This document shows positions 2,416 to 24,389 of a stretch of 64,000 nt of DNA, piece after piece. How positions within the stretch are numbered: the first letter of the stretch is position 1; each line of letters starts with the position of its first letter. Location: contig CAVPLM010000003.1 in the NCBI GenBank assembly GCA_963706025.1, positions 320,001-384,000 on the forward strand, read 5' to 3'. The notes under the pieces are model-generated. The model made no database searches and had not been told where the DNA came from. It saw only the letters and a list, made by a program, of their open reading frames with translations. Both the position numbers and the translations under genes were made by a program. Origin of the DNA: an uncultured Actinomycetes bacterium. GTDB taxonomy: Bacteria; Actinomycetota; Thermoleophilia; RBG-16-64-13.

Positions 2416-4712
2416 CGAAAGTCCGGGGAGGAGTCCAGAAGTATCAGCGCGTCGGCGGCCTTGACCCCTCGCCCCTCTGCGCCCACCATCAGGGGGTTGA
2501 TGTCTATCTCCGCGAGATACGGCTCGAGGTCGAGGGCAAGTCGCGACATCTTGAGCAGCACGTCCTCGATCGCGGCGACGTCCGCCCTCGGGTGACCTCG
2601 GGCGCCGGTAAGCAGCTTGAAGCCTTTGGTCTCGCGGACCATCGCGGCCGCGTCGGTCTCCGTCAGGGGGGCCACTCTGAGAGCGACGTCTTCGAAAACT
2701 TCCACGAAGATACCGCCCAGACCGAACAGGAGCGTCGGTCCGAACTGGGGGTCCCTCTTCATGCCGACTATGCACTCGGCGACCGAATCGGCCACCATCT
2801 CCTGTATCAGCACCCCGTTGATGGTCGCCTCCGGGTAGCGCTCCGCTCCCTGCCGCAGGATGCGGTGAAACTCGGCCTCCGCTGTTTCGGCTGTGCCGCA
2901 GCCCAGCGCGACCAGGCCGGCCTCGGTCTTGTGGAGGATGTCGGGGGAGTCGATCTTCAGCACCACCGGGAACTCGAATACGGGCAGCGTTGCCGCGAGC
3001 TGGTCCGCGCTGGCCACAGGCCACTCCCGCGTTATCGGGATGCCGTAGGCCTCCAATACCTTCTTCGCCTCGTGCTCGCTCAGGCTCTTCTGCCCACGCG
3101 CCAAGGCCGTTTCTATGATCGCGCGGGCTCGGTCCACTGCCTGGTCCTGGTCGACGACTCGGCTTCGTTCCGACACTTCGCCTCCGTCCTTGCTCATGCC
3201 CCCCTCACCCCGCCGGTAGTAATCGATCACGTGGCCCAACGCCCGGAACGCCCGGTCGGGCGTCGGGTACACGGCTATTCCGTTGTCTTGATAGTAGCGG
3301 CGCAGTCTCAGTCTCTCCGCTTCCACGGCGATATCGCTGCGCGGGTCAAGGTTCTCCCTGAGCACCACGACGACCGGTATGCCCGATATCCGCTGGATGT
3401 CGATGGGGATCTCGGAGAGCCAGGGCTCGTCCTCCGTGGATGTCTGGCTCGCGTAGTGCATCAGCCGTCGGAGTTCCTTGGACAGCACTATCCTGTCCAG
3501 GATGATCGTTCCGACCTCACCTGACCCGGCCATGGCCTCGAGAACGCCCTTCACCACCGGAGGCGAGGGCATCGGGGCGAGGACGTCCACCGGGTTGGAG
3601 GCGGTGGAGCCCACCGGGGGGAGGAAAGAGGCGATCTTGTCGCGGATCGCTGGGCTCATCGGTGGCATAGTGAGGCCGGCCCGATAGCATGCGTCGCTGG
3701 CCACCACGCTGTTGCCTCCGCCGGCACACACATAGCCGATGCGTGGGTCGGCGAGCCGGGGCAGGAAATGGAAGGCGGCGAGGCAGTCCAGGAGCTCCTC
3801 GAGGCTCTCTACCCGTACCACCCCTGCCTGGCGGAGCACTGCGGCCCAGACTTCGAGGTTGCCGGCCAAGGCGCCGGTGTGGCTGCTCGCGGCCACCGCC
3901 CCTTGGGGCGTCGCCCCTCCCTTCCACAGCACTACCGGTTTCGTGGCGGCGACCCGGCGCAGTACATCGGCGAACCTCCGGCCGTCCCGCGCTCCCTCGA
4001 CGTACATCCCGATGATGCTGGTGGCCGGGTCGGCGCCCATGTATTCGAGAAGGTCGGCCTCGTTGAGATCGAGGGCGTTCCCGAAACTGATCACCTTGCT
4101 CGAGTAGAAGCCGAAGTTGGGTGTGGCGCGGGCAAAGTCCTCCGACAGCCCTCCGCTCTGGGCGACAAAGGCCACGTCGCCACTCTCACGGGGATAGCCC
4201 TCGCCAGGATGCTGGGTAACGCCGCCCGCCGGGGAATAGACACCCAGGCAGTTGGGCCCCACCATGCGGAAGCTGCCGTCGAACTGCTCGCGCAGTTCAG
4301 CCTCAAGAGCTCTGCCTTCCTCCGTACCCGTTTCGCCGAAGCCGCCGGTGAAGGCCACGATCGTCTTGACACCCTTCTCCCGACACTCCCGCACCACCGA
4401 CGGTAGAGTCTGGGCGGGCACGAAGAGGAAGGCCAGGTCGGCAGCCTCCGGCAGCGAGGCGACCGATGGGTAGACCTCCAGCCCCATCAACTGCCCCCCT
4501 CGGGCGCTGATAGGGTAGAGCCGGCCGGGGAATCCGAAGTGGAGGAGAGCCCGGAGCATGGAAGTGCCTGGTTTCCAGGTGTCCTGAGAGACGCCGACGA
4601 CCGCTACGCTACTGGGGAAGAAAAGCGGTCGCAACTCCTCGTAGATGCCCGGTTGCGCCACGTCGGTCGATTTGGCCTCGGGTCCCTCTTGTTCACTCAT
4701 GTCGCGGGTCAC
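2412..4712 (-). CDS. ADP-forming acyl-CoA synthetase (CoA-binding alpha + ATP-grasp beta)
   Basis: GPNCLG, SHTGALAG phospho-His, LSEHEAKKVLEAYGIP, KIDSPDILHKTEAG, EIDINPL; beta part has its own possible ATG at 3197. Confidence 0.9.
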   Translation of the reverse strand: MTRDMSEQEGPEAKSTDVAQPGIYEELRPLFFPSSVAVVGVSQDTWKPGTSMLRALLHFGFPGRLYPISARGGQLMGLEVYPSVASLPEAADLAFLFVPAQTLPSVVRECREKGVKTIVAFTGGFGETGTEEGRALEAELREQFDGSFRMVGPNCLGVYSPAGGVTQHPGEGYPRESGDVAFVAQSGGLSEDFARATPNFGFYSSKVISFGNALDLNEADLLEYMGADPATSIIGMYVEGARDGRRFADVLRRVAATKPVVLWKGGATPQGAVAASSHTGALAGNLEVWAAVLRQAGVVRVESLEELLDCLAAFHFLPRLADPRIGYVCAGGGNSVVASDACYRAGLTMPPMSPAIRDKIASFLPPVGSTASNPVDVLAPMPSPPVVKGVLEAMAGSGEVGTIILDRIVLSKELRRLMHYASQTSTEDEPWLSEIPIDIQRISGIPVVVVLRENLDPRSDIAVEAERLRLRRYYQDNGIAVYPTPDRAFRALGHVIDYYRRGEGGMSKDGGEVSERSRVVDQDQAVDRARAIIETALARGQKSLSEHEAKKVLEAYGIPITREWPVASADQLAATLPVFEFPVVLKIDSPDILHKTEAGLVALGCGTAETAEAEFHRILRQGAERYPEATINGVLIQEMVADSVAECIVGMKRDPQFGPTLLFGLGGIFVEVFEDVALRVAPLTETDAAAMVRETKGFKLLTGARGHPRADVAAIEDVLLKMSRLALDLEPYLAEIDINPLMVGAEGRGVKAADALILLDSSPDFR

Positions 4713-6385
4713 CCTTCTGGGGTCTCCAGTATGTAGACCACGCCGATATCGCCGTCGACCCTAACGCGCATCCCCGTCTTGAGTTTCTTCGTGCCTTCGA
4801 CGCACCCTGAAATGACCGGCAGGCCATACTCCCGGCCCAAGATGGCCGAGTGGCTCAAGATACCGCCGACGTCTGTGACGACGGCCTTGGCGACGTTGAA
4901 GAGGGGTGTCCACACTGAGGAGGTCTCGATCGTCACCAGGATGTCGCCGGGCTCGAACTTATCGAAGTCTTCCTCTGAGCGGAGCACCTTGACCACTCCC
5001 TCGGCGACGCCGGGGGTCGACACGGTGCCGTAGAGATCTGCGTTCAGTTCCGGTCTCACCCGGGGATGAGGCTGCTGTGTGCTGCGTAGCATAGGACTGC
5101 TCGCGATCACCTCTCCCAGTTTGGTGATGTCCCCGATGAACAGATCCGGTTCGGCTTTGCGGAAGCGCGCGTGCTCTGTTCTACGCTTGGCCACCAGATC
5201 TTGAGCAGGGAATCGGCCCAGAATGCGCGCGCTGATCTCTTCCGGAAGCAGGAAGTACACATCTTGGGGGTCGTCGACGATCCTTTGGACGGCGAACCTT
5301 CTCCCGATCTCCTTCGTCACCCGGCGGGCCAACGCATTGCCGTAATTCTCGGCATAGAATGGATGCTCATCGTCCACGACGCTCGACCACTGAGCCGCTC
5401 TCATCAGCTCGGCGAACGCTTCCTTCTTGTCCTCCGGTACGCGTGAAAGTACCTCTTCCTCAGCCCTCGCCCTCGCCTCGAGGAGCCTCGGTTGGGCTTC
5501 GTCCAGCGCGAACACCGGGACCATCATGAAGCGCCTGATCGACGGCAACACCTGGCTCGGCTTCTCGATCCAGGTGGGGTGGCTGGCATCCCAGTTCTCG
5601 ATGGTGCGCCAGCCGTATTCGGCCAGGAACGCGTGGAAAGCTGCGAGCCAGGCCCTTCCGGCCTCGGAGCTCTCCAGCCTGAGGAGCAGTTCTTCGTCGT
5701 TCGGCGTCTCCGCGAAGAGGGGCTCGAGTCCCGTTTCCCGGGCCTTCGCCCCCAGATAGAACATCTCCCTGTCGGTCTGCAGTATCTTGTGGTTGAAACC
5801 CGCCATGAGATCGTTGAACAGACGGTTGTTCCTGTCTATCCCGACGAGATCCTTGCACATCTCCTCGAACATCTCGTAGATCTTGCAGTAGGCAAGGAGC
5901 CACACCATATGCAGATTGCCGGCTCGCCGGTAAAGCCAGACCCATTCGTCGAAGGCGTCCGAAAGCTCGAAGTCCTCGCACCCCTCGATGTCGACGGCCT
6001 TGGCCTTCTCATAGAGGGCCATGACCTCGTCTACACCCTTGTTGTACTCCCGGCCGAAATCCTCGATCCAGGGTGCTATCCGTTTTTCGAATTTCGCCGT
6101 CCGCTCTTTGCGCTCCTCTTCAGTCGTGAAGAGGGTGCCGTCATAGACCCAGCCGTCTTTCAGCTTGCAGTCGAAGCCTCTGCATTCGGGGACGCAGAAG
6201 TACTCGTGCCCGTATTGGAGCCCGATGTTGTCGTAGTTGTACTGGAGCATCCACAGATCGAAGGGCGTGGGGGAACGCAGTGTCTCTTTCCGGTCGAGGA
6301 TCCAGACTTTGTAGCGTTCCAGGAGCGCCATATCGCGCTCCTCGTTCCAATTAACAAGCACGCCCTCGGTCGAGTAACCTGACAT
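4709..6385 (-). CDS. PEP-utilising mobile-domain protein, phenylphosphate synthase subunit A-like
   Basis: C-terminal swivel His domain (WTPLFNVAKAVVTDVGGILSHSAILGREYGLP...VDGDIG), long helical N-terminal region, no ATP-grasp; RBS AAGGAG. Confidence 0.8.
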   Translation of the reverse strand: MSGYSTEGVLVNWNEERDMALLERYKVWILDRKETLRSPTPFDLWMLQYNYDNIGLQYGHEYFCVPECRGFDCKLKDGWVYDGTLFTTEEERKERTAKFEKRIAPWIEDFGREYNKGVDEVMALYEKAKAVDIEGCEDFELSDAFDEWVWLYRRAGNLHMVWLLAYCKIYEMFEEMCKDLVGIDRNNRLFNDLMAGFNHKILQTDREMFYLGAKARETGLEPLFAETPNDEELLLRLESSEAGRAWLAAFHAFLAEYGWRTIENWDASHPTWIEKPSQVLPSIRRFMMVPVFALDEAQPRLLEARARAEEEVLSRVPEDKKEAFAELMRAAQWSSVVDDEHPFYAENYGNALARRVTKEIGRRFAVQRIVDDPQDVYFLLPEEISARILGRFPAQDLVAKRRTEHARFRKAEPDLFIGDITKLGEVIASSPMLRSTQQPHPRVRPELNADLYGTVSTPGVAEGVVKVLRSEEDFDKFEPGDILVTIETSSVWTPLFNVAKAVVTDVGGILSHSAILGREYGLPVISGCVEGTKKLKTGMRVRVDGDIGVVYILETPEG

Positions 6386-6403
6386 GGTCTCTGGCTCCTT
6401 ACC

Positions 6404-7366
6404 CTAGAATCTGAAGCTGATCCGGAATGTCTCGGGTCTTGTCTGCAGAATGAACACGGGGTCCGAGGGGGCGCCGCGATCGATCGCCCACTCGATGTCT
6501 TGGGGCCTGCCGAAGTGTGCCTCGATGCGCTTGCCGATCCTGGCCAATTCGAGCACTTCTTCATCGAGAAGGCAGCTGCAGCTTTCGCCCGCCTCAGAGG
6601 ATAGACCATCGCCCGGCGCCCCGGGGGCGATCCTGCGATCGACTATCGTGAACTCGGTGGCGTCCACGGTCCAGTTGTCGGGAATGACCGCTCCGGCGAC
6701 CACGATCTCCCCGAGGCCCCGGCACCCCTCGATGATCATCCGAGTGGCATCGGCCGTCGTCGGTTCCGCCGTGAACATGACACCCGCCGCGTCGGCGTCG
6801 ACCATCGCGAGCACCGCCACGCCTATAGGATCTGAGTCGAGCGGGAGCCCTTTGCGGGCTCGGGCGACCAGAGAGCGGGCGTTGAAGGTGCTGGACCACA
6901 CCCTGATCACGTTCTCCGCGACGGCGGCGCTCCCGGTCACGTTGAGGAAGCTCTCGTACTGTCCGGGGTGGCTCGCCGGCCCCGCGGACCGGGTGGCGAC
7001 GGGCAGGTTCGCAATGCCGGTCCTCGCGCATAGCCCGTCGTAGTGGCCGGCCAGGGTGTCTGAGATGTTCCGCGGCATGTCCTTCGACTCGACGATCTCG
7101 CACACGATCCTGGAAGCCTCCGTGAATCTGGCCAACTGCTTGGGATCGTCGGGGTCTGCCTCGAAGGGAGCCAAGTACTTCTTGATCTCGGCTCCGGCGC
7201 CGGTGGCCCTCATGAATTCCTCGTAGGCCTCCAGACAAAGCGCAAAGCCGGGCGGGACCTGAAAACCGGCCCTGGTCAGCTCGCCGAGGTTCGCGCACTT
7301 CCTGCCGACCGATCCACCGTCTGCTTGGGTCAGGTCTTCGAGCCAGGATATCCACTCACTCGTCAT
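6404..7366 (-). CDS. PEP/pyruvate-binding (ATP-grasp) protein, phenylphosphate synthase subunit B-like
   Basis: VGRKCANLGEL, VPPGFAL, VATRSAGPASHPGQYESFLNV, PQDIEWAID, FILQTRPE; start MTSEWISWL at 7366 in ATGA overlap. Confidence 0.82.
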   Translation of the reverse strand: MTSEWISWLEDLTQADGGSVGRKCANLGELTRAGFQVPPGFALCLEAYEEFMRATGAGAEIKKYLAPFEADPDDPKQLARFTEASRIVCEIVESKDMPRNISDTLAGHYDGLCARTGIANLPVATRSAGPASHPGQYESFLNVTGSAAVAENVIRVWSSTFNARSLVARARKGLPLDSDPIGVAVLAMVDADAAGVMFTAEPTTADATRMIIEGCRGLGEIVVAGAVIPDNWTVDATEFTIVDRRIAPGAPGDGLSSEAGESCSCLLDEEVLELARIGKRIEAHFGRPQDIEWAIDRGAPSDPVFILQTRPETFRISFRF

Positions 7367-8149
7367 CCGGTCGCCCCCATCCGGTTCGCCACGGGTCGGC
7401 CCCCCGCTGCTTCGCCCCCATATCTCACATTGTCTCTCAGGCCGTTGAAGCGCTCGATCACCATGATCCGCCTCGGTGGGCCCCCGGTAGATGTAGCCTG
7501 TGTAAAGGATAGTCTTGAACCCCCGCTTTTTGGCGGGGGTGATGTCCGCCCACTCCTTATCGCCCATCATGGCCGCTTCGCCGGGCAAGATCCCGCGGGC
7601 GTTCAGATCCTCGGCCAGTACGTCGTAGATCGTCCCGTCTTCCTTCGACGTCCCTTCGTACCGGGTATCCACCGCCCGGTCGGCAATGCGCATCCTCCCA
7701 CGTGGGGTCACCAGGGCCTCGAAGTATTTCAGGACGTCGTGTCTCTCCAAGAACCTGAATTCGCAGGAATCGTCCATAGGCCCAGGGCTGGTCCTGGCCG
7801 CCGTGACTACGGAAAGCTCTATACCCTCCTCGCGCAGGTAGCTCAGAGCCTCGTGCGCGCCGGGCGCCAGAGCCAGATACTCCTGCTCGACGCCGAGGAA
7901 CACCTCTCCGGCCGCGGGATCGTCATCGAACACATAGCCGAGAAGCTCGATTTTGTGACGTTCCAGGACCACCGGGAGGGAGCCGTACTTCTCGATCAGC
8001 ACGCGCCACCTATGGTATGCGCTCGCGCTCGACTCCGGTCTGCTCAAAGCCTTGGCGGTGTCGCCGGTCAGCAGATGGCCGCGTCTCGGAGTGACATCCA
8101 TCAAGCACTCACCCATGTCGATGCCCATCCACTTGACATCGAGGGTCAT
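7363..8149 (-). CDS. HAD-superfamily hydrolase (frameshift near 7462)
   Basis: GIDMGECL motif I, MMGDKEWADITPAKKRG motif IV; removing one base near 7462 gives ADHVIERF...GATG-stop overlapping the next ATG. Confidence 0.75.
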
Positions 8150-9033
8150 GGCGCGTCTGCTTCTCCGGACTCTCGATATCCCAGGTCATAGGAAAGGGCT
8201 GCCGCCACCTGTCTGAGGGCCTGCTGATACCGCCGGTCCTCGGCCTGTCCGTAGCGCACCTCGGAAACGACCAAGGAGAGACTGGCCCGGACCTCCCCGG
8301 AGAAGTCCCTCACGGGCACGGCCAGAGCGCACACCGCCCGCTGCTGCTCCTGGATGTCGTGAGCCACCCCTTCCTGCACCACCCGGCGGAGTTCGTCGGC
8401 GTAGCGGTCGGGATCGGTGATGGTGAACGGAGTGAGGGCCACCAAAGGGCGGCTCAAGGCTTTGGTCCGTCTTTCTTCCGGTCCGAAGGCCAGCAGCACT
8501 TTGCTGTGGGCATTGGCGAGGTCGGTGAATGTCTGGCCGACGTACATGAGGAACTTGAACGGACGCGGCGACGGGGAATGAGCGACGCACAAGGGGCCGT
8601 CCCCGTTCCAGACGGTGAGCCCCACGCTTTCGTCGGTGGCATCGGCCAGTCTCTCGAGATGCGGCGCTGCGAGACGGGCCAGAGCCGCCTCGGCTATCCA
8701 TACGTATGCCAGTTGGAGCACCGCCGGTCCCAGGAAGTACTTGCCGTTCAAGGGATTCAGAGCGATGACACCTTCCGCCTCCAAGGTCTTCGTCAGCCGG
8801 AACGCGGTGGTACGTCGCAGTCCCGACCGCCGGGCCAGTTCTGAGGGGTTCCATTCGGGGTGCCCAGAGTCGAACATGCGCACGATGCGCAGGGCCCGCT
8901 GGACCGATTGGACCAGAGAACCGCTACCCGGCTCGTCCAGATCGGGTTCGTCGGGGTCGAAAGCCGGATGTTCTGGGTCTTTGCTCACATCGGACCGCTC
9001 TGGAGACTCAGCTGTTTCTGTGGAGGAAGACAA
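8146..9033 (-). CDS. IclR-family transcriptional regulator
   Basis: VQSVQRALRIV...ELARRSGLRRTTAFRL HTH; AHSKVLLAF and CALAVPVRD effector-domain motifs; start uncertain. Confidence 0.92.
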   Translation of the reverse strand: MSSSTETAESPERSDVSKDPEHPAFDPDEPDLDEPGSGSLVQSVQRALRIVRMFDSGHPEWNPSELARRSGLRRTTAFRLTKTLEAEGVIALNPLNGKYFLGPAVLQLAYVWIAEAALARLAAPHLERLADATDESVGLTVWNGDGPLCVAHSPSPRPFKFLMYVGQTFTDLANAHSKVLLAFGPEERRTKALSRPLVALTPFTITDPDRYADELRRVVQEGVAHDIQEQQRAVCALAVPVRDFSGEVRASLSLVVSEVRYGQAEDRRYQQALRQVAAALSYDLGYRESGEADAP

Positions 9034-9050
9034 GGTCGCCGTGCAAGAGT

Positions 9051-9172
9051 ATTGTTCTATAATACGTCAGTCATGTCAATATTTTGGGACTGGAGCAGCC
9101 AAAACCTTGACATCGGGCCAGGCCTAGAGCTATCGTGAGACTGATTTTTGCCTTCTATAATCCAATAATGGA
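9051..9172. promoter_or_regulatory. Divergent sigma70-type promoters with candidate operator
   Basis: + strand TTGACA(9107-9112)-N18-TATCGT; - strand TTGACA(9079-9074)-N17-AACAAT; TTCTATAAT twice; palindrome TCCA-ATAA-TGGA 9161-9172. Confidence 0.5.
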
Positions 9173-9256
9173 CAGAGGAGTGCTTGCCCAGTCGTCGCTG
9201 CGCCGACGTCCATTGATTGGCTCTGGCCTTGTGGTAATCGGAGGTTCGTCTTGAGA

Positions 9257-10937
9257 ATGGTCTCCTATCCACCGCAACTCCAGGCAGAACTGTTGCCCCC
9301 AGGGTGTCTTCCGGACCTGGTGCGGCCCGCGGAACTGGGCCTCGAGTTGCCCGAGGAGATCAACCTGACCGAGTGGTTCCTGGACCGGAATCTGGCGGGG
9401 GAGCAGGCCGATCGTGTCGCCTACTACTCCGGCGAGAGGGCTATCACCTACCGGGTCCTGAACGAATGGGTCAATAAGTTCGCCAACGCCCTCCGCGGCC
9501 TGGGGGTCGAGAAGGGCGACCGGGTGATGCTCCGGATCGCCAACAGCGTCGAGTACGTCGTCAGCGCTCTGGCCGTGGGTCGCATGAGCGCCGTCGTCGT
9601 GCCCGACCATGACTCTTCTGCGCGCGAAAGTCCTCGTCACGACGCCAATAGATCGGAAGCCAAGGTCATCATCTGTGGGTACGAGCTTCTGGGCGAGATC
9701 GAAGCCGGTCGAGACCAGTACAGACGGTCGAGCACATCATCTCAATCGGCGGCGAGCCGGAGGAGCTTGAAGGTCGCAAACTGCTGGGTTACGAAGGGTT
9801 GATCGCTTCGGCCGACGATCGGATCGAGAGCGTCAGGGTGCCGGCCGATCGTTGGCTGCGGTCTTCTTCACCTCGGGCACCACGGGACAGCCGAAGGGCT
9901 GCATGCATCTGATCCGGAGCATCATCGGCTCCGTGCACTCCTTTCCGCTCACCTTCGGCGGCGTCAAGCCGACCGACGTCTTCCTGGGTTCGCCCCGTTC
10001 GCTTTCGTCATCGGTACGGCTACAACATGTTGCTGCCGCTATCTGCCGGGGTCCCCAGCGTGATCCTGGAAGGCAGGATGTCCGCCGAGGCTTTCTCGAA
10101 GCCATCCCGAGGTACAAGGTGACCATGTTCAACGCCGTCCCTACGGCCTTCAATCAGATCCTCAACCACCCGAACATCGCCGACTACGACCTGAGCAGCC
10201 TACGGGTGGTGATGTCCGGCAGCGCTCCACTCCTGGCCTCTACTTTCCAGCGGTTCAAGGAACTCACCGGGCTGGAGATCGTGAACGGCATCGGCTCCAC
10301 GGAATCCATCGGGACTCAGCTTGCCTCCTACTTGCCGGGCTACAAGCCTGGTGCCACCGGTTGGCCGGTCCCCGGGGTCCAGGCCAAGATCATCGACGAT
10401 GACGGCAACGAATGTGCGCCCGGAGTGACCGGGCGGCTGGTGGTCAAGGCCTGCTATGGGACCATGTATTGGCGTGACGTCGAACGGCAGAAGAAAGCGG
10501 TGATCGACGGCTGGAGTCTCTCCGGCGACTATGCTACAAGGACGAGGATGGTCTTTTCTGGCACGTCTCCCGCATCGACGACATCATCAAGAGCCGTGGC
10601 TATCGGGTGTCGCCCGGGGAGGTGGAGGACGCCCTTCACGAGCACGGAGCAGTTTACGAATCCACGGTCATCGGCGTACCCGACCCGAGCAGGGTCAGCG
10701 GGTGAAGGCTTTCGTGATACTGAAGGACGGTTTCGTCGGGTCACCGGAGCTGGTCGAGGAGCTCAAAGCGTTCGTCAAGAGAGCGGGTGGCACCTTATAT
10801 GTCCCCCAGCGATATCGAGTTCGTCGAATCCCTGCCCAGGACGGAGACCGGAAGGTGCGCCGCCTCGAACTCCGCGAACTCGAGGCACGGCGGGCCGAGG
10901 AAGAGCGTCAGAAGTGCACGCGCAGGGAAGGACATGA
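9257..10937 (+). CDS. AMP-forming aryl-CoA ligase (benzoate/aminobenzoate-CoA ligase-like), multiply frameshifted
   Basis: FFTSGTTGQPKGCMH, NGIGSTE, GATGWPVPG, DDIIKSRGYRVSPGEVE spread over several frames. Confidence 0.8.
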
Positions 10938-10941
10938 GCCC

Positions 10942-11829
10942 GTGAACCTACCTGCCTTCGCGTACCTGGAAGCCGGAACCTGGAGGAGGCCTGGAGTCTG
11001 CTGCGGGAGCACCGGGCGACGGCAAGGTGCTTGCCGGGGGGACCGACCTCCTGGTCAAGATGAAACATAGGAGACTCATCCCCGTCTCATCTGGTCAGCA
11101 TCAAGGGCATAGCCGGGCTCGACTACGTCGAATACAAGCTCGGCGAGGGGCTGCGCGTGGGCGCCTCTCACAACCATAGAGTCGGTCAAGCGCTCCCTGG
11201 TGGTGCGCAAGATGTATCCGGTGCTACTTCCAGGCGGCTGCGTACATGGCCACGTCGCGATCCGCAACCGAGCCACCGTGGAGGCAACATCTGCAATGGC
11301 TCGCCCTCGGCGGAGACGGCGCCGGCCCTGATCGTGCTTGGTGCAAGGGTACGGATCGTGGGGCCGGGCGCGAGAGGGTCGTCGCGGTCGAGGACTTCTT
11401 CACCGGGCCGGGCTGTACGGTGCTGGAACCCGGTGAGATCGTGGCCGAGATCCAGGTGCCTGAGCCACCGCGCGGGAAGCGCCGGGGTATATGAGAAGCA
11501 CAGCCTGAGGCGGATGGACGTGGCCATGGTTGGGGTGGCCGCACTGGTGGCCCCCGCGGGAGAGACCTGTGGCGACATACGGATCGCACTCAGCGCAGTC
11601 GCGCCGACTCCCGATGAGGGCCAGGAAGGCGGAGGACATGCTCCGGGGCCTGGCTCCGACCTAGAGCCTGGTCGCCGCGGCTGCGCGCGCGGCCGCCGAA
11701 GAATCGCGGCCCATCACCGATATCCGCGGCAGCGCGGAGTCGCGCAGGCAGACCGTGGAAACGCTGACGGCTCGGGTGGTCCACCAGGCTCTGAAGGGCG
11801 GCCAAGACTGGAGGTCGACCGGCAGATGA
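10942..11829 (+). CDS. Xanthine dehydrogenase-family FAD subunit (CoxM-like), frameshifted
   Basis: AGGTDLLVKMK, IRNRAT..GGNICNGSPSAETAPAL, RIALSAVAPTP, PITDIRGSAE; stop overlaps next ATG; no HcrB-type Cys insert seen. Confidence 0.8.
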
Positions 11830-14292
11830 AGCAGGCACCGACCGAGGCACCGAACGCGGAGACGACCGACATGATGCGGAAGATCGCGCTCACCGTCAAC
11901 GGCAAGGGGTATGAGTTCGAGGTCGAGCCCCAGGAGACGCTGGTGGAGCTTCTGCGGGAGAGGCTGCGCCTCATGCGGACCAAGGAAGGCTGCGGGGTGG
12001 GTGAGTGCGGGTCGTGCACCGTCGTCATGGACAAGAAGGCCGTGGCCTCCTGTCTCGTGCTGGCGGTGGATGCCGACGGCTCGGAGATCGTGACGACGGA
12101 GGGCATGTCCTGCGACAGCGAGTTCCAACCGATGCAGGAGTCGTTCGTCGACCATCTGGCGATGCAGGCGAGGGTCGGGGTGTCCACGCTCAGCGCACGC
12201 GAGCAGTACCTGACGTTCTGCCACCTGTGTTGCGGGCATTGCGCGGTCAAGGTGACCGTGGCGGACAACGTCATCGTCGACATGGCCCCGGACCTGGAGA
12301 GCGGCCTGTCCAACGAGCAATGCGTGTACAAGAAGGGGCGGCTCTCGATCCCCGAGATCCACGGCCATCCCGACCGGCTCCTCTACCCGATGAAGCGGGT
12401 GGGAGCCCGAGGGGAGGGCAAGTGGGAACGTATCTCCTGGGACGAGGCGCTGGACACCGTGGCGGACAAGTTCCGGACCATCAAGGAGGAATCCGGGCCC
12501 GAGTACGTGATGTTCGGCCTGGGTGAACCGCATGGGCTGGAGTTCGCCTTCGCCCAGCGCTTCGCCTCGGTCTTCGGTACGCCCAACGTCACCACTCCCG
12601 GCTGGTTCTGCGGGGTGCCCTTCCAGACGGCCAACGCCTTCACCTTCGGCCAGGGCGCGATACCGGACGAGGAAGGCACACCCCGGAGCTACTGGTGATC
12701 TGGGGCACCAACCCCAACCACACCTCCGGGGGCATCCGCAGGCAGACGGTCATCAAGATCGTGGAGAGCGGAGCCAAGATCGTCGTCATCGACCCGCGCA
12801 AGATCGACTTGGCCGGCCTCGCCGACCTGTGGATCAAGCCTCGCCCGGGCACCGACGGGGCCCTGGCGATGGGACTGCTCAAAGTCGTGGTCGAAGAGGG
12901 GCTCTACGACAAGGAGTTCGTGCGCGACTGGACCGTCGGCTTCGATGAGCTCAAGAGCCGAGCTGGGCAGCCTTCTCGCTGGCCGACGTGGCAGCAGCCA
13001 CCTGGGTGCCGGAGGAGCAGATCCTCAAGCTCGCCCGGATGATCGGCGAGAACCACCCCACCTGCCTGCACTGGGGCAACGGCATCGACCAGGGGGTCCA
13101 ACCCTTCCAGACCCACCGGGCCATCTCCATCCTCGCGGCGATCAGCGGCAACCTCAACGTCCCCGGAGGGCATCGTCCTACCCGACTCAGAGACCAATTT
13201 CGTCCGCCCGGGCAGGTTCTACAGGCTGAGCAAGCGGCTCCCCGTCGCGGACAAGACCATCGGCAAAGAGTTCCCGATGACCCTCAAGTCGACCTCCGTT
13301 CCCTCGTGGAGCCTGGTGAAAGCCATCCTCGAGGAGAAGCCATATCTGCCACGCGCAGCCTTCTTCATGCTCACGAACCCAATGACCAGCTTCATCAACA
13401 CGGCGGGAGACCCGGGAGGCGCTCATGAAGATCGAGTTCACCGTGGTGCTCGACCTGTTCATGACACCGACCGCGGCGTTGGCCGACATCGTCCTCCCGG
13501 TCGCGTTCGGGATGGAGCACGATGAGGTGGGCTACTGGCCGGGATGGTACAACGAGGTGAGGGCTCATCCCAAGGTCGTAGACCCGCCGGGGGAGGCTGG
13601 CCCGACACCAGGATCATCAACGAGCTGGCGAAGCGCCTCGGGCTGAGCGACTTCTGGGAGGAGGACCATGAGGCGCTCGACGTGTGGCTGGCTCCAAGCG
13701 GTCTCACCTTCGAGGACCTCAAGCACCAACGGACTCTGCTGCCCAAGAAGAACTACAGCAACGCCAACCTGCGCACGCCCTCGGGCAAGGTGGAGATCGT
13801 AGCCGAGCCGCTCGCCGAACTGGGTCTGGCGGTGCTGCCGACCTGGCGGGAGCTCTCCGCCATCCCGGAGATACCGGAGGAGTATCCGCTGCTCTTCACC
13901 AACTCGAAATCCGAGATCTTCATCGGCACGAGCTACAAGGGGGTGCCGGCCCTGCGCGGGATGCGGCCCGAGCCGGTGGTCCAGATGAACCCGGCCACCG
14001 CTCGTGGAGCTCGGGTTGAAGGACGGCGACGAGGTCTACATCGAGACCAAGATGGGGAGGGTCAAGCAGCGACTGGTTTTCGATCGGGACATCGACCCTC
14101 GGGTGGTTTTCGCTGATTTCGGCTGGTGGTTCCCTGAGGACCCCTCGGGCGACCTGGGTTGGGACTGGGGGAACATCAACATGCTCACCAGTGCCGAGGG
14201 GCCGGTCGACCCGGCGGTCGGTGTGATGGTGCTCAGAGGCGTTCCCCTGCAAGGTGTACGCTGCGGAGCCTACTGGAGGCTCAGCGTGCTGA
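11826..14292 (+). CDS. Partial CoxS [2Fe-2S] domain fused to Mo/W-bisPGD oxidoreductase (acetylene hydratase-like), frameshifted
   Basis: KEGCGVGECGSC...SC, then FCHLCCGHC, HPDRLLYPMKRVG, WERISWDEALD, IWGTNP, PRPGTDGALA, TPSGKVEI, WWFPE..NINMLT..DP. Confidence 0.8.
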
Positions 14293-14350
14293 GCCTGTGT
14301 CACGGGTCGGGGACCTTCGGCGACAACCCTCGACAAGGGAGGTAGGCCGC

Positions 14351-15091
14351 ATGGTGATTACGCCAAGATGGGTCGGCATCGACTTCGGCCAGACCCTAAT
14401 GGACTCGTCCCCGGAACGCACCTATTGGATGATCGGAGACACCAGCAAGGAACTGGGTGAGCCAGAGCTGGTCGAGGAACGCTGTCATCGTTGGCGGACG
14501 ATGAAGGAGAAGTACGGCTCCTATCCGGTGATAAAGGAGCGGGCCCGGCCGGAGATAATGACCTACGTCTTCGATGACCGTCCCGGCGTCGACCGAGGTG
14601 TTCAGCCGCATCGAGCAGAAGTACCTGAAGATCGCCGACGGAGCGCATCGACGCGATCAAGTACCTCAGCGACCAGGGCATCGAGGTGTCGATCGTCGCG
14701 GAGCTCAAGAGGACCCTGGGGCCCATCGGCACCGACATGGTGAGCGCGTTCCTGGTGAGACAGGGCGTGATCGAGTACTTCGACGAGCTCATCAGCCCCC
14801 AGGGCAAGATCGATCTGCGCACGGGCGAGACCGATCTGCGCTACAAGGGCACTTCCAAGGAAGTGGGCGATCTCTACGACGTGCTCGCCGACGACCTCCG
14901 CTCGCGCGGGATCGAGCCCCGGGACGCGGTCATGGTGGGCGACAAAGAATGGTCCGATATCACGCCTGCGCAGAAGCGCGGTTTCCAGGCCATCCACTAC
15001 TCCGGGCTACATCTTTCATGCCCCCTCGAACGCCACCTACGAGATCACGGCATCTTCCGAGCTAAAGAACATCATCAGACCGGTGGAGTGA
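14351..15091 (+). CDS. HAD-superfamily hydrolase, paralog of 7363-8149 (frameshifted)
   Basis: RBS GGAGGT; GIDFGQTL; MVGDKEWSDITPAQKRG; collinear with first HAD. Confidence 0.75.
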
Positions 15092-15095
15092 AAAG

Positions 15096-15803
15096 ATGAA
15101 TCAGCCGAAGCGAAGTTGATCGTCGAATACGATGACGGCTCCACGAGGGAGGCGGACTACGCGGCAAGGTGGACGGCGCAGACCCGGCTACCGCTTGGCT
15201 CGGCTCTGGGACTCTTCCCGGCCGGCGCGCACGTGGGTCGTGTCCAAGCACTACCTGCTGGTGCGGTGGCAAGGACGGCTGGCAGGAGGTCTTCGGGATC
15301 GACGACGGACTCTGCCGAATCTGCTCCGTTACTACGTCATCGAGAGGATCGAAGATAGGGGTCAGACTCTCTCTGGAGACCGGGTGGCGACTATCCCGAA
15401 CTGCACGTCATCGAGCGCACTCCCCGCGATGTGGTCGGCGCCGTGATCGTCGGCGAGGGCGGTGTCAAGTCCTACGCTCTCGACAAGTCAGGTCGAGCGG
15501 TGGGAGGGGATATACGAGGCCGGGGGCAAGAGGGAGCATGTCAGGTTCGACAAGACGAGCGACAAGTATCCGCACGAGGCCGGCGACGACGGGAACGCCT
15601 TGGAGCCTGTCTTGGACGCGCTGAGGCGCGAACTCGACACTAGGGGCGTCGATCCCCGGACGCTGCTGGCCATGGACGAGTCAGAGCGCGTGAGCGAGTA
15701 CAAGACTCTGGCCTCCGGCGCGAACATCCGAGGGAGTTACAGACAAGAAGACGTCTATGGGTTCGTGGAGTCGATGATAACCAGACTGGCGGGAGCGGTG
15801 TGA
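15096..15803 (+). CDS. Hypothetical protein (frameshifted), coupled to UbiD gene
   Basis: Coding-like segments IVEYDDGSTREAD / HYLLVRWQ / LLRYYVIERIEDRG / VERWEGIYEAGGK...RLAGAV; stop overlaps UbiD start. Confidence 0.55.
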
Positions 15804-17262
15804 TGAAAGACCTTAGAGACTGGATCGCGGCTTGCGAGAACGAAGGCGAGCTCAAGCGGATCACCAAGGAGGTCGACTGGGAGCTGGAGCTCGGCCACGT
15901 GGCCACCCTTAACGAACGGGCGGGGGGACCGGCTCTCCTCTTCGAGAAGGTCAAGGACTACGGCATCCCGGTACTCAGCAGCACGGTGACCACGGCCAAG
16001 AAGATGGCCATCACCTGCGGGAAGCCCGCGCACTACACGCTCTGCGACGTCTCTCGGGAATGGAAGAACGTTATCCAGCAGGGCAGGCTGGTGGAGCCGG
16101 TGGAGGTCAAGGACGACATCCCGGTGATGTACGAGGTCCTGGAAGGTGACGACGTCAACGTCTTCGACCTTCCCTCCCGCGCCTCTACCCGCAGGACGGC
16201 GGCCGCTACCTTGGCCTCGCCTGCAACTACATCACCCAGGACCCGGAGACCGGCTGGACCAACCTGGGGACCTACCGCGGCATGGTCATGGACGAGAAGA
16301 CCATCGGCGCGAACATGATGGGCAAGGCCAAGCACGGACGGATCCACGTCGACAAATACTCCAAGCTGGGGACCAGGATGCCGGCGGCCGTCTATTGCGG
16401 CTGCGATATGTTCCATCTTGTGGTCGGCTCGACCATGGTGCCGGCGCAGCAAGACGAGTACGGTGTCATCGGCGCAGTCATGGGTCGGCCGGTCGAGGTC
16501 TTCACCAGCGACCTGACCGGGCTGAAGCTTCCGGCTCATGCCGAGATCATTCTCGAGGGCGAAGTGGAGCTCGATCCCGACAAGTTCCGGCCCGAGGGCC
16601 CCCTGGGTGAGTACGTGGGCTTCTACGCTGCCAGCGGTGAGGGCCCGAAACCCTGGCTTGAGATCAAGCGGATCTACAAGCGGAAGGATCCCATCTTCGT
16701 CATCAGCACCGTCGGCCGGCCGGTGGGCGACGCGCACATGATCAACGCCGTCGGTCGTATGGCCTATCTGTGGGCCGACCTGGAGATGATGAAAGTGCCG
16801 GGTGTCCGGTCGGTCTACTGCCCGCCCGAAGCCGCGGGCCGATTCTGGGCCATAGTGTCGGCGAAGATCACCCATCCCGCCGGTGCCGAGAGGGTCGCCG
16901 AGGCGGTGTCTTGCAGTCCCACAGGGCACTTCGGCATCAAGGGGATCATCGTCGTCGACGAGGATGTCCCGGCCGACGATATGGCAGGCGTCTGGTGGTC
17001 TCTGGCCTGCCGCTACGATCCAGGTAAGGACACCCAGATCATCAACAAGATGCGCCCCACCCCGTTCGACCCCGCCCTCCCTGCTGGGGCGAAGGCCATA
17101 GGCTCCAAGATCCTGATCGATGCCACCACGCCGGTGGAATGGGAGAAGAAACCTCGCCTGGTCGAACTGGACGAGGCCACTTCGAGGGCGGTGTTGGACA
17201 AGTGGCAGGAATACGGGTTCGAACAGCCGTACAAGCTGTCAGGAGATGCTCTGCCGAGGTAG
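15800..17262 (+). CDS. UbiD-family (de)carboxylase, phenylphosphate carboxylase beta subunit-like (frameshift near 16175)
   Basis: DLRDWI..ELKRITKEVDW, GPALLFE, NLGTYR, EGPLGEY, GRFWAIVS, GIKGIIVVDED, ACRYDP, TPFDPAL. Confidence 0.85.
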
Positions 17263-17486
17263 CCGTCAGCGGGGCAGAGGTGCCGAACGAAAGCACGACA
17301 CGAGGAGGAAAAGGGCGTAGTGTGATAAGTGGCGGTGGGAGCTACTCAGGGAGACCCGGCCCGCGTGTGTGGCGGCGCAGGGCAGGCGGTCGGGGGAGGT
17401 GTGGTTGAGAGAAGATGCTGGGTTACGAGGTAGGGGTTTTGTCGGTTGACGGAAGAGATAGTAGTGCATGAAAACGGGGGTTACAC

Positions 17487-18965
17487 ATGTCAGCTCAAGA
17501 CAAGAATCACTGCGAAGACCCGGATCTCATCGACGGCCGGACCGTCAGCCGTCGGGAGTTCCTGAAGCTGGCCGGCATCGCCGGGGCGACGATCGGGGTG
17601 GGCGCCGGCCTGGGCGGGCTCCTGACGGCCTGCGGCGAGGAAGAGACCACCACTACCACGGCTGCAGCTACCACCACCACGGCCGGAGCTACCAGCACCA
17701 CGGCGGGCGCCACGACCACGGTGAGCACCGGTGCCGAGGCCGGGCGGGAGATCAAGGTGGGCTTTGTCGACCCGATCACGGGCGCTATCGCCGGATTCGG
17801 GATCCCCGGCAAGTGGTGCGTGGAGCGCTGGAGTGAAGCGGTGAAAGACGGGCTGGTGTGCGGCGACGGCTTGAACCACCCCGTCAAGATCGAGCTCCAG
17901 GATAGCCAGTCCGATAGCAACCGGGCCGCGCAGGTGGCCGGTGACCTCATTACCAATGGTAAGGCCGACTTCATGATGGCGGCTGCCTCCCCGGACACCG
18001 TGAACCCGGTAGCCGACCAGAGCGAGGCCTTGGGATGTCCCTGTCTCACCGTCGACGCTCCCATGGAGCCCTACTTCTATGGCCGGCAGGGAGCCAACCC
18101 GGATCCGAACTACGTCTTCAAGTGGACCTACCACCTGTTCTGGGGCTTCACCGAGATGGAGAAGGTCTACTGGGACACCTGGAACGGAACGGCGACCAAC
18201 AAGAAGGTCGCGATCATGTTCCCCAACGACGTCGACGGGAACGCCTATCGGCAATACTTCACCCAGGAGAAGTGCGCCGCGAACGGCTTCACCACCGTCG
18301 ACCCGGGGCCCTTCCAGCCCATGACCGACGACTTCACCACTCAGATCTCGCTCTTCAAGAAAGAGGGATGCGAGATCGTTTCGGCCTGGTTCATCCCGCC
18401 GGAGATGGCCACCTTCTGGACACAGTCCCTACAACAGGGCTTCAACCCGATAATCTTCCAGGCCGTGAAAGCCTCGCTGTTCCCCACTGCCATAGAAGCC
18501 ATAGGAGGGACCTCGGGCGACGGCATAGTTGGTCCCTGCTGGTTCCATCCGACCTACACCTACGTGTCTTCACTCACGGGTGAGACCTGCCAGCAGTTGT
18601 GCGACGACTTTGAGACTCGGACCAACCAGCAGTGGACGCAGCCGATCATGCACTATGCGGCCTTCGAGTGGGTCGTCGACGTTCTCACGCGCACCACGAA
18701 CGTGGACGACAAGGAAGAGATCATGAAGCGGGTGACCGAGACCAAGGCGGACTTCGTCTGCGGTCCGGTCGACTTCACGGTCCCGATCTCTGCCGACTTC
18801 GGCGCCAAGCGGCACGTCGCCAACGTCTACGTGACCCCGTTGTGGGCCGGTCAGTGGCAGCTTGACCCGGGTGGCAAATGGCAGTACAAGCTCGTGGTGG
18901 TCACCAACTCGGCCGCTCCGGACCTCAAGGTTGAGGGCCCGCTCCAGCCGATCAAGTACTCTTAG
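17487..18965 (+). CDS. ABC transporter substrate-binding protein (branched-chain/type 1 family), Tat lipoprotein
   Basis: SRREFLK twin-arginine, LTAC lipobox, Thr-rich linker, DSQSDSNRAAQVAGDLI. Confidence 0.85.
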   Translation: MSAQDKNHCEDPDLIDGRTVSRREFLKLAGIAGATIGVGAGLGGLLTACGEEETTTTTAAATTTTAGATSTTAGATTTVSTGAEAGREIKVGFVDPITGAIAGFGIPGKWCVERWSEAVKDGLVCGDGLNHPVKIELQDSQSDSNRAAQVAGDLITNGKADFMMAAASPDTVNPVADQSEALGCPCLTVDAPMEPYFYGRQGANPDPNYVFKWTYHLFWGFTEMEKVYWDTWNGTATNKKVAIMFPNDVDGNAYRQYFTQEKCAANGFTTVDPGPFQPMTDDFTTQISLFKKEGCEIVSAWFIPPEMATFWTQSLQQGFNPIIFQAVKASLFPTAIEAIGGTSGDGIVGPCWFHPTYTYVSSLTGETCQQLCDDFETRTNQQWTQPIMHYAAFEWVVDVLTRTTNVDDKEEIMKRVTETKADFVCGPVDFTVPISADFGAKRHVANVYVTPLWAGQWQLDPGGKWQYKLVVVTNSAAPDLKVEGPLQPIKYS

Positions 18966-19145
18966 ACCAACTCGTGCCTCTGGAACCTGCCCACCCGCGA
19001 AAACAGGCAGCAGGCTCAGGATGAAGTGAGACCGTGGCGCGTGCCCAGCACGCGCCACGGTCTCATTCCGGTGGATCGCGGTCCGCGACAAAACAGATGG
19101 CGCCGCACACGGCGACCGGTGAACCCGAAGAGCGAGCCCGAGAAA

Positions 19146-20046
19146 ATGACCCCAGCTTATGACCTCGTTTTCGTGGGCAATGCGTCCATCGACCAGATCC
19201 ATACCTTTGAAGGACCGATCCAGACCCTCTTCGGCGGGGGTGTGGTCTTCAGCTCCATGGCGGCGGTGTGGTCCGGCAAACGGATCGCAGTGGTCACAAG
19301 GATGGCGGAACGCGAGGCCCACTTGCTCGACCCCTTGCGTGAGGCCGGGATCGACGTATACGTCACCTATGCTCCGCAGACTACGCGCCACAGGGCGTTC
19401 CACCTCAGCGGAGATGTCGACCAGCGGCAAGTCGTCCTGGAGGAGAGCGCCGGAGCCTTCACGGGTGGAAGACCTGCCCCCAATGCGGCCTACTTTCTTG
19501 CACCTGGCCGGTCTTACCGACCAGGAGTTCTCCCTTGCTTTCATGAAGAGCGTGAACGAGCTGGGCCATACCTTCTCCGTGGACTTCCAGGGGCTGGTCC
19601 GTCAGGCAGACCTGCACACGGGTGAGGTGTCATACGCCAACGTTCCCGACAAGGTGGAGATCACCAACCTAGCCGACAAACTGAAGCTCGATGCGCTGGA
19701 GGCCAAGTTTCTGACCGGTACGGCCAACCCCGAACTGGCAGCCGCGCGGATAGAAGAATGGGGCGCCTCAGAAATAATGGTGACGAGGACGGAGGGAGCT
19801 TTGGTTCGCTGTCGCGGCGAGTCGTATTTTGAGCCCTTTTCGAACAGAAGCGTCGAAGGTAGAACGGGACGGGGTGACACCACGTTTGGTGCCTACCTTG
19901 CGAGCCGCCTGGACAGCAGTGTCGGCTACTCGCTGCGACTCGCCGCATCTGTGGCCTCGATCAAGATGGAGACTCAGGGTCCGTTCAGAGGTACCTTCGA
20001 AGAGATAGCGGCGAGGATGAGCACCATTCATGGGCGAGGCCGATGA
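19146..20046 (+). CDS. PfkB/ribokinase-family kinase (frameshift near 19465)
   Basis: VGNASID, GGGVVFS, GRTGRGDTTFGAY anion-hole motif. Confidence 0.8.
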
Positions 20047-20071
20047 CTACGTCCAGATCACGACCATCCGA

Positions 20072-20099
20072 TTGACTCACATGTTCGGTATCGTATGAT
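20072..20099 (+). promoter_or_regulatory. Candidate sigma70 promoter for alcohol dehydrogenase
   Basis: TTGACT-N16-TATGAT; RBS AAGGAG before 20171. Confidence 0.4.
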
Positions 20100-20170
20100 G
20101 GAGCGAAGGAGTGTTGCCTGGGTCATCGTCCAGGTGCTGTGCTGAGGACCAACAGGACAAGGAGTGAGAA

Positions 20171-22468: not shown

Positions 22469-22694
22469 TATTGGTATACTCGTTTCATTTGACAGACAGC
22501 GCCAGGTCCCTCGCCGGCACCCGGGCGATGGTCGCCGTGTGAAGAAGCGGCGTGACGCGCCCTAGAAACGGGAGAGGTCCAGTTTTGAAGAGCAACAAGG
22601 AGGGAATTCACAGTCCTAGTCGAGTTGGACCGCACGGCTTTGCATCGGAAGCTGATCTGGCACGAGATGCCGATCTTAGTAAGGAGAGTCGATC

Positions 22695-23501: not shown

Positions 23502-23530
23502 CTATCCGCCGAGCCGAAAGGACGAACCAT

Positions 23531-24314: not shown

Positions 24315-24389
24315 GAACGGCGCCTAACCTGGCGCAGTCGGGCCGCCCGGCGGGTGAAGGGTCCCGCCGCCCGCTGACGGGGTCGCCCG

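Follow-up and report, generated by a model that had tools for sequence, protein, structure and literature searches.

Which role do a protein of the haloacid dehalogenase (HAD) superfamily and a protein without any recognised family play when their genes are packed against that of a UbiD-type (de)carboxylase? The question was raised by three co-directional plus-strand genes at positions 14351-17262 of a 64,000-nt stretch of contig CAVPLM010000003.1 (assembly GCA_963706025.1), here called the window, from an uncultured Thermoleophilia bacterium. They encode the HAD protein, the family-less protein (named UNK) and a UbiD enzyme similar to PpcB, phenylphosphate carboxylase's beta subunit. A previous sequence-only reading had proposed that HAD and UNK replace the delta and gamma subunits of the Thauera enzyme. 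The analysis reported here favoured another reading, to which we give a probability of about one half: HAD and UNK would form the phosphoryl-handling module of a kinase-then-carboxylase pathway, tied at this locus to a specialised PpcB-like UbiD. This reading is drawn from sequences, predicted structures and analogy.

Gene layout and intactness

The HAD-like gene opens at ATG 14351, with a GGGAGG ribosome-binding site 8 nt upstream, and its stop codon occupies 15089-15091. A gap of only 4 bp (AAAG) separates it from the ATG of UNK at 15096, and the TGA of UNK (15801-15803) overlaps the start of the UbiD gene (ATG 15803, or GTG 15800), which extends to 17262. The G+C content of the window is 62-66%. 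The 4-bp gap and the stop/start overlap described in the sequence-only reading were verified with their coordinates and signals, and the UbiD motifs that it quoted (GRFWAIVS, GIKGIIVVDED, ACRYDP and TPFDPAL) were all found in the 16150-17262 frame. As the three packed genes and every quoted motif are present, this observation was confirmed. The block is not a chance arrangement, as 6/6 related genomes retain it as a unit, including where its orientation to the upstream genes is reversed.

In the window, the three genes and the majority of genes across 9.1-21.3 kb are split over several frames, a point that the earlier reading conveyed for the three only by its word 'repaired'. The HAD-like gene has three frame changes (near 14590, 14645 and 15002), UNK changes frame about seven or more times between 15100 and 15500, with many 1-2 bp insertions between 15107 and 15490, and the UbiD gene has one frame change. 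Compared with two congeners, the window carries extra single or double bases at 14590, 14645, 15002 and about ten places in 15107-15490, and lacks one C after 16175. Comparison contigs were available from four public runs (X1-X4, two studies; freshwater and freshwater-sediment metagenomes according to the run records) and were 95-99+% identical to the window; 16 other runs with small shares were left out. These contigs did not contain the extra bases at 15002, 15165, 15179, 15186, 15200, 15205, 15364, 15385 and 15490, and had the additional C after 16175, so that ten indels of the window were contradicted in total, by up to four runs. Contig cover was lacking for the shifts at 14590 and 14645, for 14351-14546 and, in some runs, for other bins.

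The frame pieces of the window were 88-96% identical in amino acids to intact orthologs, and in a genome of the same genus, G003, the three proteins are intact (245, 234 and 486-487 aa) and their genes have the identical 4-bp gap and overlap. Since the public-run contigs contradict ten of the indels, the pieces are this similar to their orthologs and the G003 genes are intact, the three genes were treated as intact, which in the organism they almost certainly are; sequence comparison indicates that the frameshifts are very probably assembly errors. The intact G003 forms served as reference proteins and no sequence was altered. A decaying block of pseudogenes, also considered, was ruled out by the public-run contigs contradicting ten indels, in a stretch that they left partly uncovered. 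Insertions of 1-2 bp are dense at 9000-21300 of the window, where nearly every gene is broken, and long genes elsewhere (e.g. 2412-4760 and 59093-61765) are intact; the errors at 9000-21300 appear to be local assembly or polishing errors.

Conservation of the HAD-UNK pair

The gene neighbourhood was compared in 21 species-representative genome loci and 41 metagenome loci. In 19/21 genome loci the HAD gene lay directly upstream of UNK; in L028 both were in the same operon, non-adjacent, and L037 had no HAD. A UbiD gene at least 60% identical followed directly downstream in 11/21 loci, and Pps-like kinase genes were present within the locus in 15/21. The co-occurrence expected from the earlier proposal was thus upheld for HAD and UNK, and for a dedicated UbiD clade (see below), but not for UbiD as a constant neighbour, which was absent beside the pair in 8/21 loci. 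In these eight (L020, L024, L027, L028, L031, L033, L035 and L036), Pps-like genes stand in the same gene string as the pair, mostly directly beside it and, in L028, between HAD and UNK. HAD-UNK is not specifically a set of carboxylase subunits, because the pair also occurs without an adjacent UbiD, beside other enzymes. A further locus (L029:42-9216) has the order biotin carboxyltransferase/biotin carboxyl carrier protein, biotin carboxylase, HAD, UNK, UPF0261, AMP-ligase (CoA ligase) and thiolase, with no Pps-like gene in the locus. Two others, L032 and L034, carry HAD-UNK-UbiD without a kinase within 10 kb. PpsB-like genes were found elsewhere in 5/5 genomes whose loci lacked them.

The metagenome loci gave a similar arrangement: HAD was directly upstream of UNK in 30 of the 31 evaluable loci (L085 being the exception), ten contigs being too short, UbiD was in the operon in 12/41 (one of them a weak 51-aa match) and Pps-like genes were present in 16/41. 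Interleaved orders were also seen, namely HAD-UNK-PpsB-UbiD-PpsA (L052) and UNK-PpsB-UbiD (L070). The metagenome rows are not all independent, because they include near-duplicate contigs (L034/L075, L057/L059).

Ten whole genomes were reached through the loci; two had a UbiD of the clade type, five had only UbiDs 32-46% identical and three had none. The clade UbiD of G048 is encoded apart from Pps-HAD-UNK, on another contig, with no HAD-UNK beside it. Within the class of the window, matches to UNK were obtained in 13/55 genomes of its own family and in 0/245 genomes of other families. Distant UNK paralogs (25-52% identical) keep the order PpsB-HAD-UNK, and their neighbours were one 33%-identical UbiD after, one Amidohydro_2 protein before and two CoA ligases after the genes. 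The Amidohydro_2 gene (of the ACMSD-type decarboxylase superfamily) adjoins PpsB-HAD-UNK at L090:326-4189, in a distant paralogous system.

The linkage is conserved across four phyla-level groups. The constant unit is HAD(Asp-x-Gly-Gln/Glu)-UNK, an obligate two-gene module. Its most faithful companion is the split Pps-like kinase. Third comes a carboxylase of varying type: roughly half of the loci have a UbiD of the dedicated clade, and the others a biotin-type, an Amidohydro_2-type or an unseen enzyme.

Features of HAD and UNK

The intact HAD ortholog has 245 aa and a predicted HAD fold, in agreement with the larger HAD of about 245 aa described previously. It matched Pfam HAD_2, Hydrolase and Hydrolase_like, the first two above their cut-offs; these signatures are weak in the window. 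Its AF2 model (predicted local distance difference test, pLDDT, 89.1) has the predicted Rossmannoid core with a cap and gave 330 Foldseek matches in the PDB at E<=0.001. The top matches were C1-cap proteins of HAD subfamily IA (E 5e-11 to 1e-9, template modelling (TM) score 0.54-0.66, 13-22% identity), and the relatives included PH1655 (2hoq), YfnB (3i76), a HAD phosphatase of T. onnurineus (4ygq) and L-2-haloacid dehalogenases. The sequence profile reached solved HADs in the motif IV region only.

The nucleophile Asp, the motif II Ser (S113) and the motif III Lys (K169, in SKE) are kept in this HAD family, and motif IV is acidic (GDKEWxD), with G196-D197-K198-E199...D202 conserved; motifs II-IV were assigned by sequence order, not by superposition. 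Motif I departs from the phosphatase pattern DxDx(T/V): Asp+2 is replaced by Gly in 21/21 aligned HADs and in all 31 further HAD N-termini, including those of paralogs 45-51% identical, so that the family-wide motif reads D-F/Y/M-G-Q/E-T/C. The HAD did not match the delta subunit family TIGR02726 at E<=0.1. [quoted passage not shown]

UNK, previously noted as an unknown protein of about 235 aa, has 234 aa when intact and indeed has no family or recognisable fold. The intact ortholog gave no Pfam or NCBIfam match. In a word-indexed search, Actinobacteria, Chloroflexota, Deltaproteobacteria and Syntrophorhabdus contributed 156 homologs, each about 230 aa long and annotated as hypothetical. When 1.84 billion representatives were searched exhaustively with a profile, 105 were recovered at E<=1e-3 and 30 at 1e-30; no fused forms were seen, because none of the 105 exceeded 250 aa. 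The AF2 model (pLDDT 85.7, predicted TM score 0.79) predicts a body rich in beta structure and, after it, a small helical domain. This model had no Foldseek match in the PDB at E<=0.001; VIA-align against 48,161 chains reached a best Z of 4.6, which is below the usual noise level and does not make the fold a new one, and the best ESM Atlas score (0.77, from unnamed phage-like clusters) was below the useful range.

The charged residues D57, E61, R84, E86, R90, R107, E136, E146 and D218 of UNK are invariant, even in paralogs 28-33% identical; this suggests that UNK is more than a passive scaffold. A gamma subunit was also considered as its identity and rejected, as hhalign against the gamma-like open reading frame (ORF) of G006 gave a probability of 0.05.

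A dedicated clade of PpcB-like UbiD enzymes

The intact UbiD ortholog contains Pfam UbiD_N, UbiD and UbiD_C and scored 292.4 bits with TIGR00148 (cut-off 244.85). Its top NCBIfam family was phenylphosphate carboxylase beta (TIGR02724), with an end-to-end alignment, and only 168 bits were obtained with the alpha family. The PpcB likeness claimed earlier therefore held as regards the best family, but not at the equivalog level, as the 443.8 bits of the intact ortholog are under the cut-off of 468.95; the pieces in the window scored 100.3 and 337.7 bits. Homologs at 50-58% identity bear the name PpcB from the Prokaryotic Genome Annotation Pipeline, and the nearest solved structures are generic UbiD decarboxylases (7pda, PA0254/HudA and vanillate decarboxylase). 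Residues N155, R160, H179, E220, E266 and E271, candidates for the metal/prFMN ligands and the catalytic Glu/Arg/Glu, are invariant in 34 UbiD sequences. Their spacing resembles that of N168/R173/H191/E233/E277/E282 in Fdc1, a comparison made by spacing and not by structural alignment.

The non-canonical partners noted earlier were also borne out in the source genome (G000, 92% complete), where no canonical alpha, delta or gamma subunit was found. The best score for an alpha-type UbiD paralog (TIGR02723) in G000 was 115.6 bits (cut-off 564.6), the delta family (TIGR02726) had no match there at E<=0.01, and the gamma family (TIGR02725) had no match in G000 nor in any control genome.

In a quick maximum-likelihood IQ-TREE search, all 15 sampled UNK-linked UbiDs fell into one clade (Shimodaira-Hasegawa-like approximate likelihood ratio test, SH-aLRT, 100; stem 0.44). 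This clade arises from within sequences named PpcB, and the canonical PpcB pair of the sister genera lies outside it. The rows left out were L052 and L070 (stops), L021 (frameshifted), L023, and the partial L030, L051, L065 and L071. Four rows inside the clade have no gene context on record, and two of them are probably UNK-linked too, as their contigs are of the same lengths as those of L023 and L070.

The sister genera of the same family (G006: L046, G006:C10; G010: L047, G010:C21) carry canonical clusters, with PpsA (886.8 bits), PpcB (659.8 and 646.3 bits) and, in addition, a gamma-like ORF and other UbiDs; HAD-UNK was not found in G006 or G010. Canonical-type clusters were also observed in two genomes that do have HAD-UNK (L095 and L096), and the four clusters L046, L047, L095 and L096 combine PpsA/B with a high-scoring PpcB and another two or three UbiDs. 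With canonical and HAD-UNK clusters in related or the same genomes, two architectures coexist in one family and even in one genome.

Proposed role of HAD-UNK and alternative explanations

HAD-UNK-UbiD would be the distal part of a cluster of about 12 genes for the phosphorylation, carboxylation and CoA activation of a phenolic compound, in an uncultured Thermoleophilia/Gaiellales-like actinobacterium. The proposed cluster has the order HAD2-PpsB-like-PpsA-like, IclR and, divergently, ligase, FAD/FeS/Mo enzyme, HAD-UNK-UbiD and ABC binding protein. Its kinase pair lies 6 kb upstream of HAD-UNK-UbiD, on the minus strand, with PPDK_N and PEP-utilizers domains on separate proteins encoded side by side, the arrangement of a two-component aryl kinase. 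The aryl-phosphate pathway is plausible because this Pps-like pair is present in the window, and the gene layout, as predicted from sequence, is that of an anaerobic phosphorylate-carboxylate-thioesterify pathway.

HAD-UNK was read as a phosphoryl-handling module because of the linkage pattern and the precedents of the Thauera delta subunit and of HpeD. In the mechanism proposed, the conserved Asp of HAD would accept the phosphoryl group from the aryl phosphate that the kinase has made, either at the carboxylation step or afterwards, and HAD would correspond in function to the Ppc delta subunit or to HpeD. The lost general acid at Asp+2 would fit an aryl (phenolate) leaving group, for which protonation may be unneeded or undesirable. 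UNK may complete the chemistry at the aspartyl phosphate. It would not be a gamma-like subunit of UbiD; as the obligate partner of HAD, it would contribute docking or a catalytic or regulatory activity that is otherwise missing. A stable binding of HAD-UNK to UbiD is possible.

Several points weigh against this reading. A HAD without Asp+2 is no proven phosphatase, and dehalogenase-type and other chemistries share the fold. Kinase and HAD-UNK occur in three Dehalococcoidales in which no UbiD was found at E<=1e-30, and the five genomes with only 32-46%-identical UbiDs add to these; in such genomes, a kinase paired with nothing but a phosphatase would achieve nothing, unless a further modifying enzyme is present. 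HAD2 is encoded with the kinase and lacks a UNK partner. Both kinase and UbiD are below the phenol-specific equivalog cut-offs, and canonical high-scoring PpsA and PpcB are found in the sister genera; the substrate need not be phenol. Kinase and UbiD are paralogous to the canonical versions in the same family. All the statements of absence are limited by the incompleteness of metagenome-assembled genomes.

In its strict form, the proposal of the sequence-only reading was a new heteromeric aryl-phosphate carboxylase with a single PpcB-like UbiD at its core, in which HAD and UNK, as stoichiometric subunits, physically take the place of alpha, gamma and delta. Translational coupling through the 4-bp gap and the overlap, the dedicated long-stem clade of the 15 sampled UNK-linked UbiDs and the canonical subunits not found in G000 speak for such an assembly, as does the small subunit of Thauera, which in the cited part of the paper needed co-expression with beta (PMC7500099). 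Nevertheless, we consider it unlikely: the pair does without UbiD in 8/21 genome loci, only two of the ten genomes have a clade member (three having no UbiD and five only distant ones), and the clade UbiD of G048 is on another contig than Pps-HAD-UNK. With a HAD outside the delta family and a UNK unlike gamma (hhalign probability 0.05), what is left of the replacement is a functional analogy at most. The prediction of a UbiD, HAD and UNK complex, with UNK as the partner, gave scores of 0.04 and 0.02, the mark being 0.32, with no controls, and is neither for nor against binding. Doubtful, too, is a function of HAD-UNK (and HAD2) as accessories of the Pps-like kinase, either as a PpsC-like stimulator or in an Asp-phosphate relay or editing step between phospho-His PpsA and the phenolic. 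PpsB/PpsA is the most constant neighbour across deep divergence, HAD2 is directly upstream of the PpsB-like gene, kinase and HAD-UNK are alone in the three UbiD-less genomes, and the role of PpsC in Thauera is open according to the cited passage (PMC6114531). On the other hand, the two-component kinases HpeHI, CreHI and PpsAB are described in the cited passages as working without a third protein (PMC12167813, PMC6114531), L032 and L034 have HAD-UNK-UbiD with no kinase within 10 kb, and in locus L029, which contains no Pps-like gene, the neighbour of HAD-UNK is a biotin carboxylase.

A phosphoryl-salvage relay would be a long shot: lacking a general base, HAD would keep a long-lived aspartyl phosphate, acquired from the aryl phosphate in the course of carboxylation, and UNK would direct the phosphoryl group back to the kinase or to a nucleotide instead of water. 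If true, it would account for a pair that tracks kinase and carboxylase genes equally closely, and phenol-type activation would cost energy-starved anaerobes (Syntrophorhabdales, Dehalococcoidia, Thermoleophilia) less ATP. It is harder still to believe that the UbiD alone acts as an ordinary reversible hydroxyaromatic-acid decarboxylase, with HAD and UNK as unrelated neighbours or the block decaying. The frameshifts in all three genes of the window and the UbiD score under the PpcB cut-off would agree with it, but the ten indels contradicted by contigs from up to four runs, the 88-96% identity of the frame pieces to intact orthologs and the linkage across four phyla-level groups do not.

Surrounding genes in the window

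The features of the locus are collected in Table 1. HAD2 is 46% identical to HAD and lies immediately upstream of the PpsB-like gene; its C-terminus in the window probably runs into the PpsB frame through another frameshift. The window kinase scored 151-180 bits with the PpsA-type families, below their equivalog cut-offs of 578-723. A UbiX prenyltransferase gene is present in the source genome, elsewhere on the contig (G000:C3, about 46.4-47.0 kb; NF004685, 262.1 bits, cut-off 188).

Table 1. Positions and assignments of the HAD-UNK-UbiD genes and of the genes around them in the window.
Feature	Positions	Strand	Basis
PpsA-like subunit, split dikinase (PEP-utilizers mobile domain, PF00391)	4709..6403	-	Pfam; NF00615x below cut-offs
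PpsB-like ATP-binding subunit (PPDK_N)	6404..7375	-	Pfam
HAD2, second HAD paralog, motif D-M-G-E-C	7450..8149 (approximate)	-	intact form L011:16258-17022(+)
IclR-type regulator between divergent operons	8146..9033	-	sequence analysis
AMP-forming aryl-CoA ligase, frameshifted in window	9161..10937	+	domain searches
CoxM-like FAD subunit, then [2Fe-2S]-bis-molybdopterin guanine dinucleotide (bis-MGD) molybdoenzyme fusion, frameshifted	10940..14345	+	domain searches
HAD-superfamily protein, ~245 aa intact, motif I D-F-G-Q-T	14351..15091	+	Pfam; intact ortholog L011:9196-9933(-)
Unknown protein UNK, ~234 aa intact	15096..15803	+	no family; intact ortholog L011:8487-9191(-)
PpcB-like UbiD-family (de)carboxylase, 486 aa intact	15803..17262	+	Pfam, NCBIfam, tree
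Twin-arginine translocation (TAT)/lipoprotein ABC substrate-binding protein (Peripla_BP_6), intact	17487..18965	+	domain searches

The FAD subunit and molybdoenzyme genes are intact in L011:9992-13440(-), where the gene after the FAD subunit encodes 854 aa, in which an XdhC-type [2Fe-2S] domain and an Fe4S4 motif are fused to a bis-MGD catalytic domain of the dimethyl sulfoxide reductase (DMSOR) family. Electron modules of the xanthine-oxidase family together with a DMSOR-family Mo subunit were observed beside an aryl-CoA ligase in at least ten loci (L017-19, L021, L022, L025, L026, L032, L050, L061). Judging from its domains, this FAD/FeS/Mo enzyme could be a candidate for a hydroxybenzoyl-CoA dehydroxylating reductase of a type not recognised so far.

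An ADP-forming acyl-CoA synthetase (CoA_binding, Succ_CoA_lig, ATP-grasp_5) is encoded at 2412-4760(-), immediately downstream of the PpsA-like gene. Beyond the binding protein, the plus strand encodes a PfkB kinase, a zinc alcohol dehydrogenase and two PF04199 cyclases, the tandem genes of this cyclase family being at 22683-24403. The window also contains two aldehyde:ferredoxin oxidoreductase genes (2-1390 and 36312-37433) and DsrE-like and DsrC-like genes (27002-27964).

Comparison with known systems

According to the cited passages, the alpha, beta and gamma subunits of the Thauera enzyme catalyse CO2 exchange, and a delta subunit of a phosphatase family is needed for the carboxylation of phenylphosphate (PMC6114531, PMC7500099); this subunit is equated with KDO-8-P phosphatase in the part of the D. 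anilini paper cited (PMC6114531). The mechanism of carboxylases with a single PpcB in strict anaerobes is regarded there as open (PMC6114531, PMC7500099). HAD and UNK are concrete candidates for this open question, i.e., how phenolics are carboxylated by a single PpcB-type UbiD without alpha, gamma and delta. Together they make up a conserved module of two proteins that is rare: one is a HAD of non-canonical type, and the other has neither a family nor a recognisable fold. In Actinomycetota, Chloroflexota, Syntrophorhabdales and Deltaproteobacteria, this module accompanies a kinase and a dedicated clade of PpcB-like enzymes. Furthermore, the automatic label 'phenylphosphate carboxylase beta' covers at least two architectures within one bacterial family. 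No description of partners of the HAD-UNK type was found in full-text literature searches, papers in subscription journals being outside their scope.

The window cluster resembles the PpsABC-PpcABCD system of Thauera and Aromatoleum, as described in the cited passages, in its split phosphoenolpyruvate (PEP)-synthase-type kinase near a UbiD whose best family is PpcB, in the HAD-superfamily gene with the carboxylase and in the accompanying genes for an aryl-CoA ligase and a redox enzyme (PMC6114531). Unlike PpcABCD, it has one UbiD only, and alpha, the KDO-8-P-phosphatase-like delta and gamma were not found; its HAD is a 245-aa C1-cap protein with Asp-x-Gly instead of Asp-x-Asp, the 234-aa UNK is additional, and the UbiD and PpsA-like proteins are under the equivalog cut-offs.

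A single PpcB-type UbiD is also found, as far as the source passages go, in clusters of Geobacter metallireducens and in the phe and ani clusters of Desulfatiglans anilini, including that of phenylphosphoamidate synthase/carboxylase, alongside a kinase of two subunits, a CoA ligase and a redox enzyme similar to CO dehydrogenase and 4-hydroxybenzoyl-CoA reductase (HCR). The ani cluster of D. anilini differs in having, between pasB and pasA, a UPF0261 protein and an acyl-CoA synthetase and not HAD-UNK. The ani genes 03869 and 03870 were considered as HAD and UNK and rejected, since the supplement names them as these two proteins. No homolog of HAD-UNK was found in a pattern-limited scan of the Geobacter metallireducens and Desulfatiglans anilini genomes.

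In Rhodococcus, the Pps-like kinase HpeHI, the biotin carboxylase HpeCBA, which accepts only the phosphorylated phenolic, and the HAD phosphatase HpeD are described as acting in sequence (PMC9618137). The system studied here shares with this Hpe/Acv hydroxyphenylethanone pathway, in the cited account, the logic of a kinase, a carboxylase acting on the phosphorylated phenolic, a HAD phosphatase and a CoA synthetase (PMC9618137). L029 mirrors the Hpe layout, with HAD-UNK in the position of HpeD and UPF0261 where the kinase would be expected; UPF0261 is common to L029 and the part of the D. anilini ani cluster described. HpeD is, in the same account, NagD-like and stand-alone and does not stimulate the carboxylase, unlike the window-type HAD, which lacks Asp+2 and is always with UNK, and the carboxylase of HAD-UNK systems is usually a UbiD rather than a biotin enzyme. 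The HAD itself is like the C1-cap hydrolases of HAD subfamily IA in its predicted fold match and motif IV alignment, and unlike them in D-x-G-(Q/E)-(T/C) and in its pairing with UNK. Taken together, HAD-UNK-UbiD differs from the known pps/ppc systems in its partners and is not a new kind of system, as it remains within the same pps/ppc strategy.

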